Origin: Parvibaculaceae bacterium
GTDB taxonomy: Bacteria > Pseudomonadota > Alphaproteobacteria > CGMCC-115125
Direction of reading: 5' to 3'
DNA length: 64,000 nucleotides
NCBI GenBank assembly: GCA_965229975.1
Contig: OZ245936.1
Span: 1,345,539-1,409,538 of the forward strand
This document shows, in pieces, positions 33,105-62,721 of the stretch. Within the stretch, counting starts at the first letter, position 1, and every line of letters starts with the position of its first letter. The notes under the pieces are model-generated. The model did no database searches and was not told where the DNA came from. It was given only the letters and a program-made list of their open reading frames with translations. The translations under genes and the position numbers were made by a program.

Positions 33105-33158
33105 TTGACGCAAACCGAGAACCAAACTAGAACATTCAAATCAGTTTCTGGTTTGTTC
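33105..33158 (+). promoter_or_regulatory. lexA promoter with two alphaproteobacterial SOS boxes
   Basis: TTGACG-N17-TAGAAC; perfect GAAC-CAAACTA-GAAC (33119-33133); near-consensus GTTT-N7-GTTC (33144-33158). Confidence 0.85.
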
Positions 33159-33261
33159 TGGACTCGGACAAATGAGCGCCGCGGCAAAGGAGCCTGATCC
33201 GCTTACGGATCGGTCGCTCCGGGAGAGGCCCCCGAAGGCGGCGCGGGAAGGCAAAGACGGC

Positions 33262-33978
33262 ATGCTGACGCGCAAGCAGCACGAACTCCTCATGTTCATC
33301 CACGAGCGTATCCGCGAAAGCGGCGTCTCGCCCTCGTTCGACGAGATGAAGGAGGCGCTGGACCTGCGGTCCAAGTCCGGCATCCACCGGCTCATCACGG
33401 CGCTGGAAGAACGCGGCTTCATCCGCCGCATGGCGCACCGGGCACGGGCGCTGGAAGTGCTCAAGCTGCCGGATTCAGCCGCCCCGCAGAATGCCCCTGC
33501 CGCGCGCGGGTTCTCGCCTTCCGTCATCGAAGGCTCCCTGTCGCGCCGTGAACCGGCCGCGCCGGACCGGCACGTGCCGATGCCGGCGGAAGCCGATTCG
33601 CTGCATCTGCCGCTCGTCGGCCGGATCGCTGCCGGTACGCCGATCGAGGCCTTGCAGGACGATTCGAACCATGTGGGCGTGCCCGCCAGTCTGCTTGGCT
33701 CCGGCGAGCATTACGCGCTCGAGGTGAAGGGCGACTCGATGATCGACGCCGGCATCTTCGATGGCGACGTGGTGATTATCCAGCGCGCGGACACGGCCAA
33801 TTCGGGCGACATCGTCGTGGCGCTGATCGACCAGCAGGAAGCGACCCTCAAGCGCCTGCGCCGCAAGGGCGACACCATCGCCCTCGAAGCGGCCAACCCG
33901 GCCTACGAGACCCGCATCTTCCCGTCCGACCGGGTCAAGGTGCAGGGCAAGCTCGTCGGCCTGATGCGCCGCTACTAG
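33262..33978 (+). CDS. lexA: SOS repressor LexA
   Basis: [12 protein letters not shown]....[19 protein letters not shown]; cleavage site IAAG.P; V.GDSMI..GI.DGD; ATLKR. The track ORF starts at 33172, but homologs begin at MLTRKQ. Confidence 0.98.
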
Positions 33979-58163: not shown

Positions 58164-61631
<3,468 letters not shown>

Positions 61632-61712
61632 ACCGGAAGTCTACCGAAGCACCCTGCGGCCCGCCCACCGGCGACCGTGGTTATCCCCAGACTTTTAGGT
61701 TCGTCCCAATCC

Positions 61713-61803
61713 TGTCATGCCGCGGCTTGACCGCGGCATCCAGAGCAACTCGCGAGGGGAAACCCGGATGCCCTGGACCCCGCGGTCAAGCCGCGGGGTG
61801 ACA
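61713..61803. repeat. REP-type palindromic element (GTCATGCCGCGGCTTGACCGCGGCATCCA...TGGACCCCGCGGTCAAGCCGCGGGGTGAC)
   Basis: Two facing hairpins with CTTG/CAAG loops in the small ORF-dnaE spacer. Confidence 0.8.
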
Positions 61804-61816
61804 CGGTTGGACAGCC

Positions 61817-61924
61817 TCAGCCGGCGATGCCCTGAGCCTGGGCGGCGGCGGTGAGGGCGAAGCCGCTCCACATGACGGCGCCGAGAACGATGAGCGCCGC
61901 GGTGTCCTTGATCCATTCCGACAT
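61817..61924 (-). CDS. sidA: 35-aa single-pass membrane protein, probable SidA-like SOS cell-division inhibitor (not in ORF track)
   Basis: MSEWIKDTAALIVLGAVMWSGFALTAAAQAQGIAG*; AAGGAGG RBS; LexA box in promoter; located between lolD and dnaE. Confidence 0.72.
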   Translation of the reverse strand: MSEWIKDTAALIVLGAVMWSGFALTAAAQAQGIAG

Positions 61925-61949
61925 GACCAGCCTCCTTGGTTGAGGCCGC

Positions 61950-61980
61950 ATCATGTTCCTGTTTTGTTCTTTTTGTCAAG
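61950..61980 (-). promoter_or_regulatory. sigma70 promoter with perfect LexA (SOS) box
   Basis: TTGACA-N18-CATGAT on the minus strand, with GAAC-AAAACAG-GAAC (forward 61955-61969) lying between -35 and -10. Confidence 0.88.
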
Positions 61981-62013
61981 AGCCGGTTTGCGGACGGATT
62001 TTTCGCAGGTTTC

Positions 62014-62721
62014 CTAGAGGGAGTTGTCGGTGATCGCGAGTTCGGCGCCGTCGACCAGCCGGCCCTCGTGAAGCAGGACCACGCGGTCCATGGCGCGGGC
62101 AAGGTCGAGGTTGTGGGTGGCGACGAGGGCGGCGACGCCCTCCCCCCGCGTGAGGGCCACGAACTCGTTGAAGACGCCGCGCGAGGTCTTGGGGTCGAGG
62201 TTGCCGGTGGGCTCGTCGGCCAGTAGCACGCGGGGCTGGTTGGCCAAGGCGCGGGCGATGGCGACGCGCTGCTGCTCGCCGCCCGAGAGCTGCGCCGGGC
62301 GATGTTCGAGACGGCCTTCGAGGCCGAGGCGGCCCAGCAGGCGCTCGGCGACGGGGATGGCCTGCTTGCGGCCGACGCCTGCCACCATCTGCGGCAGGAC
62401 GACATTCTCCAGCGCGGAGAATTCCGGCAGCAGGTGGTGGGCCTGGTAGACGAAGCCGAGGGAGACGCGGCGGATGGCCGTCTTCTCGTTGTCTGAGAGG
62501 CCAAGGCAGGGCCGGCCGCCGATAAAGACCTCGCCTCCATCCGGCTTTTCGAGCAGGCCGGCGATGTGGAGCAGTGAGGACTTGCCCGCGCCCGAGGGGC
62601 CGACCAGCGCTACCAGTTCGCCGGGCTGCACGGTGAGGTTGGCGCCGCGGAAGATGTGCAGCGGCACCTCGCCCTGCTGGTAGGTGCGTTCGACGTCGCG
62701 GAGTTCGAGGGCGGCGGTCAT
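62014..62721 (-). CDS. lolD: Lipoprotein-releasing ABC transporter ATPase
   Basis: [43 protein letters not shown]. Confidence 0.95.

Follow-up and report, generated by a model that had tools for sequence, protein, structure and literature searches.

A 64,000-nucleotide (nt) stretch of the genome of a Parvibaculaceae bacterium (contig OZ245936.1; the whole stretch is referred to below as the window) carries, upstream of the gene for the replicative DNA polymerase (dnaE), a 35-codon gene whose translated product is likely a divergent ortholog of SidA, the division inhibitor of Caulobacter crescentus, made from a promoter that LexA would occlude, expected to block the late divisome and probably co-induced with dnaE. 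The reading is carried by the gene itself and the purifying selection acting on it, the layout of promoter and operator, the synteny with dnaE, and intermediate sequences that establish homology to SidA. Judged by its sequence, the peptide is a divergent member of the SidA kind, which fails the narrow curated model for that protein and is joined to it by position, regulation and bridging homology; its homology to SidA makes SOS-induced inhibition of division its most likely role.

The minus-strand sequence leading into the 35-codon open reading frame (ORF) is cTTGACAaaaaGAACAAAACAGGAACATGATGcggcctcaaccAAGGAGGctggtcATG, and the locus resolves into the following elements:

61817..61924, minus strand: putative SidA-family peptide gene, 35 codons plus stop, encoding MSEWIKDTAALIVLGAVMWSGFALTAAAQAQGIAG

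61931..61937, minus strand: ribosome-binding site (RBS) AAGGAGG, found by direct reading 6 nt ahead of the ATG; a GGAG-type RBS is kept in relatives

61950..61955, minus strand: candidate −10 hexamer CATGAT from a promoter scan, sharing its first base with the end of the LexA box; many relatives have a CAT-type motif after the box

61955..61969, minus strand: LexA (SOS) box GAACAAAACAGGAAC, an exact match to the alphaproteobacterial GAAC-N7-GAAC direct repeat, filling the promoter spacer

61974..61979, minus strand: candidate −35 hexamer TTGACA from the promoter scan; in 22 of 34 homologous loci a TTGAC lies 3–9 nt ahead of the box

Within 61400–62300, TTGACA-N18-CATGAT is the sole sigma-70-like site returned by the scan (10 of 12 positions matched; shuffles expect 0.1 sites). 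The original prediction, made from the letters of the window alone, had described a minus-strand ORF of fewer than 60 residues with the AAGGAGG RBS, this promoter, a perfect GAAC-N7-GAAC box between −35 and −10, and one hydrophobic helix, and every element was found where it had been placed. The hydrophobic core covers residues 9–28 of 35, and an AlphaFold2 model run with the family alignment is one continuous helix over residues 2–30 (predicted local distance difference test, pLDDT, 93.9), from which a single-helix inner-membrane peptide is predicted. A longer, 45-residue reading of the ORF was rejected: its in-frame ATGs at 61954 and 61951 fall within the −10 hexamer and no homolog has the extension, all of them beginning MSEW or MAEW, so that the 35-residue reading is taken as correct.

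Comparison with close relatives indicates that the peptide gene is real and conserved. A first homolog search, which used the 45-residue extended ORF as query, returned four clusters (P0001–P0004) of 32–33-residue peptides, all from close relatives, all with the MSEW or MAEW start and on contigs with the order proS–lolE–lolD–peptide–dnaE; the close homologs comprise P0001–P0006. The ORF is thus present in related genomes together with its promoter, box and RBS: the intergenic alignment of the relatives keeps TTGACA, the box GAACAAAACA[G/A]GAAC, the RBS and the ORF, with third codon positions varying freely, and the −35 hexamer, box, RBS and ORF are conserved across loci L001–L007 and L020 of the survey described below. 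Pairwise ratios of nonsynonymous to synonymous differences (pN/pS) of 0.03–0.10, at a pS of about 0.6 with synonymous sites nearly saturated, place the amino acid sequence under strong purifying selection. By DnaE, an uncultured Parvibaculaceae bacterium stands closest (77% identity), followed by Parvibaculum, Tepidicaulis and Rhodobiaceae (~62–64%), which makes the lineage Parvibaculaceae-like rather than Caulobacterales, in line with the proposal that the gene belongs to a lineage other than that of Caulobacter.

The operator can be compared with that of lexA itself, which lies in the same window:

33119..33158, plus strand: lexA operator region, with an exact box GAACCAAACTAGAAC at 33119–33133 and an inverted imperfect box GTTTCTGGTTTGTTC at 33144–33158

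The same box had been predicted at the lexA promoter, at 33119, and the exact match there stands upstream of an ORF (33172–33978, likely start 33262) that scores 177.8 bits on TIGR00498, showing the operator motif used by the LexA of this genome. The box of the peptide promoter is identical or one base off in L001–L007, L020, L027, L031, L039, L064 and L072, and 13 of its 15 positions agree with TTTCTTGTTTTGTTC, the proximal sidA box of C. crescentus, taken as its reverse complement. Within the window GAAC-N7-GAAC occurs at chance frequency (3 observed vs. 1.84 expected; a count of 3 is reached in 26 of 100 shuffles). The number of boxes is therefore no evidence by itself, and the significance rests on comparison with other genomes. 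The third exact box (58935–58949, minus strand) was rejected as an operator, since it falls within the coding sequence of dnaE and the number of boxes in the window is what chance would give; it is probably not functional. The lexA promoter itself reads TTGACG, then GAACCAAACTAGAAC, then the inverted GTTTCTGGTTTGTTC; this order of −35 hexamer and box resembles that of the peptide promoter, but the gap between the two is longer.

SidA of C. crescentus is a 29-residue inner-membrane protein acting on FtsW (PMC4211646). It is encoded by ccna_02004, adjacent to dnaE (ccna_02003), and its LexA boxes GTTCACAAGATGTTC and TTTCTTGTTTTGTTC lie 49 and 15 nt from the coding sequence (PMC12700426 supplement); deletion of sidA eases the filamentation of lexA-null Caulobacter (PMC12700426). 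A metagenome scan for the two boxes recovered 12 loci, each with a 29-codon ORF (SidA or a close variant) at the published box distances and with dnaE starting 20–40 nt past its stop, and the recovered SidA matches the NCBIfam model NF033228, “cell division inhibitor SidA,” at 72.3 bits. In these loci (L008–L019) a third imperfect direct repeat, GAACAAAACCGGAAT, was seen between the two published boxes, about 35 nt upstream of the sidA start, so that three tandem sites may make up the sidA operator.

The features of SidA on which the original prediction leaned—a peptide of roughly 29 residues, encoded beside dnaE, with counterparts of the K/D pair at residues 6–7, AL at 10–11 and Trp19—proved accurate: the alignment of the two peptides is gap-free and pairs K6-D7 with R6-E7, A10-L11 with A10-L11, and W19 with W19, at an identity of ~14%. 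Like SidA (29 residues), the window peptide (35 residues) is small and predicted to form a single membrane helix, its gene would share the LexA control of sidA through the GAAC-N7-GAAC box in its promoter, and both genes stand immediately upstream of, and co-oriented with, the replicative dnaE. They differ in the number and placing of boxes (one, within TTGACA-N18-CATGAT, in the window; two to three in Caulobacter, of which the proximal lies 15 nt from the start codon), in the spacer to dnaE (185 nt in the window, with a repeat hairpin and a DnaA-box-like site, vs. ~20–40 nt in Caulobacter), in the upstream neighbor gene, and in lineage, Parvibaculaceae-like vs. Caulobacterales.

The link between these two peptides was found in sequences lying between them. 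Our survey set consisted of 80 alphaproteobacterial dnaE loci fetched with an alignment of the DnaE N-terminus. In 38 of the 80 loci the 800 nt upstream of dnaE contain an exact GAAC-N7-GAAC box on the dnaE strand, against 0.01 expected per locus, and the interval from box to dnaE almost always holds a hydrophobic ORF of 31–47 residues with an RBS. Bridging ORFs were picked by position, RBS and hydrophobicity, sequence not being used for the choice, and they align in one register as [W/F/I]-x-[K/R/Q]-[D/E]-x-A-A-L...F...W. The first subtype carries WIKDxAAL or WIKDxAAG and is found in Parvibaculaceae and Rhizomicrobium, the second carries MIRxxVQEAAALASIALFVGMIAIW and is found in Ancylobacter, Pseudolabrys and Bradyrhizobium, and the third is Caulobacter SidA.

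The bridging profiles drew on 28–31 other lineages. A hidden Markov model (HMM) built from 31 of these peptides, with the window clade and SidA both left out, matches the window peptide at 34.8 bits (E=6e-10), its sole match in the six-frame translation of the window (next best E=3.3), and matches SidA at 16.9 bits (E=2.4e-4); among 5000 composition-preserving shuffles of each, none reached the score of the window peptide and one that of SidA. When the bridging alignment was compared by hhalign, the window clade came out at 95% probability (P=1.7e-8) and SidA at 83% (P=9.4e-6), and each match pairs residue i with residue i. Window peptide and SidA are therefore connected, in a single register, by the bridging profile, and where the original prediction had left the choice between ortholog and analog, the survey identifies the window peptide as a divergent positional ortholog of SidA.

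An HMM of the full family found a match in 36 of the 80 loci, in each case upstream of dnaE and on its strand, and none among the other 8047 six-frame segments; the peptide lies within ~70–470 nt of the DnaE match in 35 of the 36 and ~1.8 kb off in L021. Box and peptide occur together in 34 loci, the peptide alone in 1, the box alone in 4, and neither in 41 (Fisher p=5e-17). Corrected for L021, where the box falls outside the scanned span, and for L036, a peptide locus missing from the set, the tally becomes 36 with both and 3 with the box only. A TTGAC(A)-N3–9-box-AT layout is present in 22 of the 34 loci, and its recurrence suggests that LexA would sit on the core promoter.

Beyond the surveyed loci, a family profile returned at least 706 protein clusters at E<=0.01 in a collection of 5.8 billion proteins. 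Members were seen in Parvibaculaceae, Tepidicaulis, Rhodobiaceae, Ancylobacter, Bradyrhizobium, Pseudolabrys, Bauldia, Prosthecomicrobium, Rhizomicrobium, a metagenome-assembled genome (MAG) of Rhodospirillales, and Caulobacter. Every named cluster among the 120 listed is a “hypothetical protein,” including one from Bradyrhizobium barranii, where the gene precedes dnaE and has LexA boxes. When a profile of the window clade alignment was run exhaustively against 1.84 billion representatives, two clusters only came back, which indicates that ordinary searches starting from this clade miss the wider family. A putative LexA–sidA–dnaE module is thus widespread and unannotated in Alphaproteobacteria, its peptide family recognized by no curated model, and it is overlooked because its peptides are short and fast-diverging. 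Whether it further represents an ancient family of ~32-residue peptides, LexA-controlled and dnaE-coupled across the Alphaproteobacteria, that forms the SOS division checkpoint of the group and ties it to polymerase dosage is a bolder proposal, to which we give slightly less than an even chance.

The polymerase gene and the two further elements that lie between it and the peptide gene are:

58164..61631, minus strand: dnaE, replicative DNA polymerase III alpha subunit, 1501.8 bits on NF004226 (cutoff 1002)

61681..61689, minus strand: DnaA-box-like 9-mer TGGGGATAA (complement TTATCCCCA), 58 nt ahead of the dnaE ATG, an 8/9 match to TTATCCACA

61706..61810, no strand assigned: repeat-derived hairpin of 105 nt, an inverted repeat with near-perfect 42-nt arms between the peptide stop and dnaE

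The error-prone DnaE2 model stays below its cutoff on this dnaE, and the peptide ORF ends 185 nt ahead of it. In Caulobacter, dnaE is induced with a log2 fold change of 1.18 after mitomycin C and 1.45 in a lexA sidA double deletion (PMC12700426 supplement). Co-induction of dnaE by read-through, which the original prediction had offered as a possibility, is hence documented there (PMC12700426); in the window a scan of the minus strand between peptide gene and dnaE found no terminator-like site, the hairpin being followed by no T-run, and dnaE is probably co-transcribed with the peptide gene.

The hairpin folds as RNA with z=−5.9 and its read depth is 18–90 times that of its flanks (run X1), which points to a multicopy repeat of the repetitive extragenic palindromic (REP) or miniature inverted-repeat transposable element (MITE) type. 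It is absent from relatives in the intergenic alignment and is not part of the conserved module, and for 61300–62300 the matches from Rfam were confined to microRNA-like hairpins below threshold, located on the repeat element. Its effect might be to dampen read-through or to stabilize the upstream message. A similar palindrome was seen upstream of the promoter in L001–L003.

The DnaA-box-like 9-mer is kept in L001, L004, L005 and L020, and a DnaA box with at most one mismatch occurs within 300 nt upstream of dnaE in 25 of the 80 loci, against 0.01 expected; dnaE therefore probably has a DnaA-dependent proximal promoter besides the SOS promoter, and such dual control is suggested for dnaE in Alphaproteobacteria. 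In Methyloligella solikamskensis (L097, 1850–2010) a TTGACG-N4-GAACAAAATGAGAAC-AT promoter stands directly ahead of dnaE with no recognizable peptide ORF, so that SOS control of dnaE seems to persist in this locus without the peptide.

These elements fit together in a mechanism modeled on SidA. In undamaged cells LexA, bound to the operator between −35 and −10, would occlude the sigma-70-type promoter. Upon DNA damage, RecA-stimulated self-cleavage of LexA would free it and the peptide would be made, insert in the inner membrane and, by homology to SidA, bind the late divisome (FtsW, with FtsI and FtsN), delaying constriction until repair is complete. The same transcript would continue into dnaE for a modest rise of the replicative polymerase, with dnaE probably keeping its own proximal promoter with the DnaA-box-like site.

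Several observations weigh against this reading. Compared directly, the window peptide and SidA show no significant similarity (BLASTP E=0.054; single-comparison hhalign P=0.027), the window peptide has no match to NF033228 at E<=10 (the SidA model has a cutoff of 35 bits), and the same model run against 125 family members gave 5 weak matches, the best at E=0.013 and all below the cutoff; on direct comparison and the failure of the curated model alone, the peptide would stay an “analog.” Residue 17 is Val in the window clade and Phe in at least 90% of the 125 family members and in SidA. No TTGACA is evident in the Caulobacter sidA promoter, unlike that of the window, and the large hairpin between peptide gene and dnaE could limit read-through. 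A search of sequencing runs for expression of the locus gave matches in runs of undetermined type and in metagenome runs, none of them RNA. Finally, the divisome target need not be conserved at ~14% identity to SidA.

The last point leads to the rival that survives best, although we hold it to be improbable: a SidA-family peptide whose target has diverged to another membrane process, for example elongation, peptidoglycan synthesis or a replication function linked to DnaE dosage, instead of FtsW, FtsI and FtsN. The low identity, the replacement of the near-invariant Phe17 in the window clade and the division of the family into clearly distinct subtypes would all suit such a change, and the SOS promoter on dnaE in L097 points to selection for dnaE control as such. 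Yet conservation of position, size, N-terminal motif and regulation speaks for a single function kept throughout, and nothing observed points to another target.

TisB and DinQ of Escherichia coli are LexA-controlled hydrophobic single-helix peptides of ~27–29 residues, membrane-depolarizing toxins under the control of antisense small RNAs. A type I toxin of this sort, damaging the membrane upon SOS induction and causing depolarization and dormancy instead of acting on the divisome, would share with the window peptide its small size, single hydrophobic helix and LexA-type promoter, features common to TisB and DinQ (for DinQ, PMC3567139). We nevertheless consider it quite improbable: the peptide is homologous, via the bridging sequences, to SidA, which acts on FtsW; it has no Pfam match of any kind and no Pfam or NCBIfam match to a toxin family; the promoter scan of 61400–62300 found no plus-strand promoter-like site from which an antisense antitoxin RNA could start; and its stable linkage to an essential gene in many lineages contrasts with the patchy, mobile spread of toxin loci.

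That the ORF is instead a leader whose translation, and not its product, regulates transcription or translation of dnaE is highly improbable, for although 36 lineages have a short ORF directly upstream of dnaE in the same orientation and its stop codon in Caulobacter lies ~20–40 nt from the dnaE start, purifying selection acts strongly on the amino acids and different orders retain the residue motif, the distance to dnaE ranges over ~70–470 nt and can accommodate a repeat of 105 nt or 1.7 kb of inserted genes, the intergenic spacer lacks conservation and holds no conserved terminator or attenuator structure, and the relief of lexA-null filamentation by deletion of sidA in Caulobacter (PMC12700426) gives sidA a cellular role beyond dnaE control.

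The divergent SidA ortholog proposed here also has functional counterparts elsewhere. SulA, a soluble cytoplasmic protein that blocks FtsZ polymerization and lacks broad conservation outside the gamma-proteobacteria (PMC4211646), is likewise an SOS-induced effector of a division checkpoint. YneA, SosA, ChiZ and DivS of Gram-positive bacteria are LexA-controlled small membrane proteins that block late division and not FtsZ assembly; they are described as unrelated genes (PMC4211646), and the comparison is one of descriptions. DidA of C. crescentus is a small inner-membrane division inhibitor that is induced by DNA damage independently of SOS and activated by DriD (PMC4211646); on that description it is set apart from the window locus, which has a LexA operator and is related to SidA.

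In the literature searched we found no description of SidA homologs outside Caulobacter, and a partial earlier report is possible. To our knowledge, SOS-induced division inhibitors are known from only a few model bacteria, and SidA has so far been treated as a Caulobacter protein, with the curated NCBI model recognizing Caulobacter-type sequences only. A putative sidA–dnaE module with a LexA operator embedded in its promoter, present in many alphaproteobacterial orders including the well-studied Bradyrhizobium, offers a concrete candidate for the DNA-damage division checkpoint of these bacteria. If this holds, the family would supply the missing SulA equivalent for Rhizobiales-type bacteria, and its divergent subtypes may have co-evolved with different divisomes. 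The family alignment is ready for use in annotation, and its natural variants lend themselves to mapping how a membrane helix of ~30 residues recognizes FtsW or FtsI.

The genes flanking the peptide are lolCE, a LolD-like ATPase and the replicative dnaE, and the immediate upstream neighbor is the following:

62014..62721, minus strand: LolD-like ABC ATPase, best NCBIfam match LolD, below its cutoff; no linkage to the peptide

The lolD–dnaE gap was accordingly rejected as a definition of the locus, a LolD-like gene standing upstream in 38 of the 80 loci, 18 with the peptide and 20 without. Part of the window locus was matched in marine metagenome runs, and three runs carrying the same species label (X13–X15) had zero reads on the peptide locus. 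In L021 (a Parvibaculum sp. MAG, 1–2000), box and peptide gene are parted from dnaE by ~1.7 kb of inserted genes, among them GFA-like proteins and a Phd/YefM-like antitoxin. In B. barranii (L100, CP096251, 2500–2660) the family member is annotated with 52 residues from an upstream start within the region of the LexA boxes, and the usual Met position is GTC (Val).

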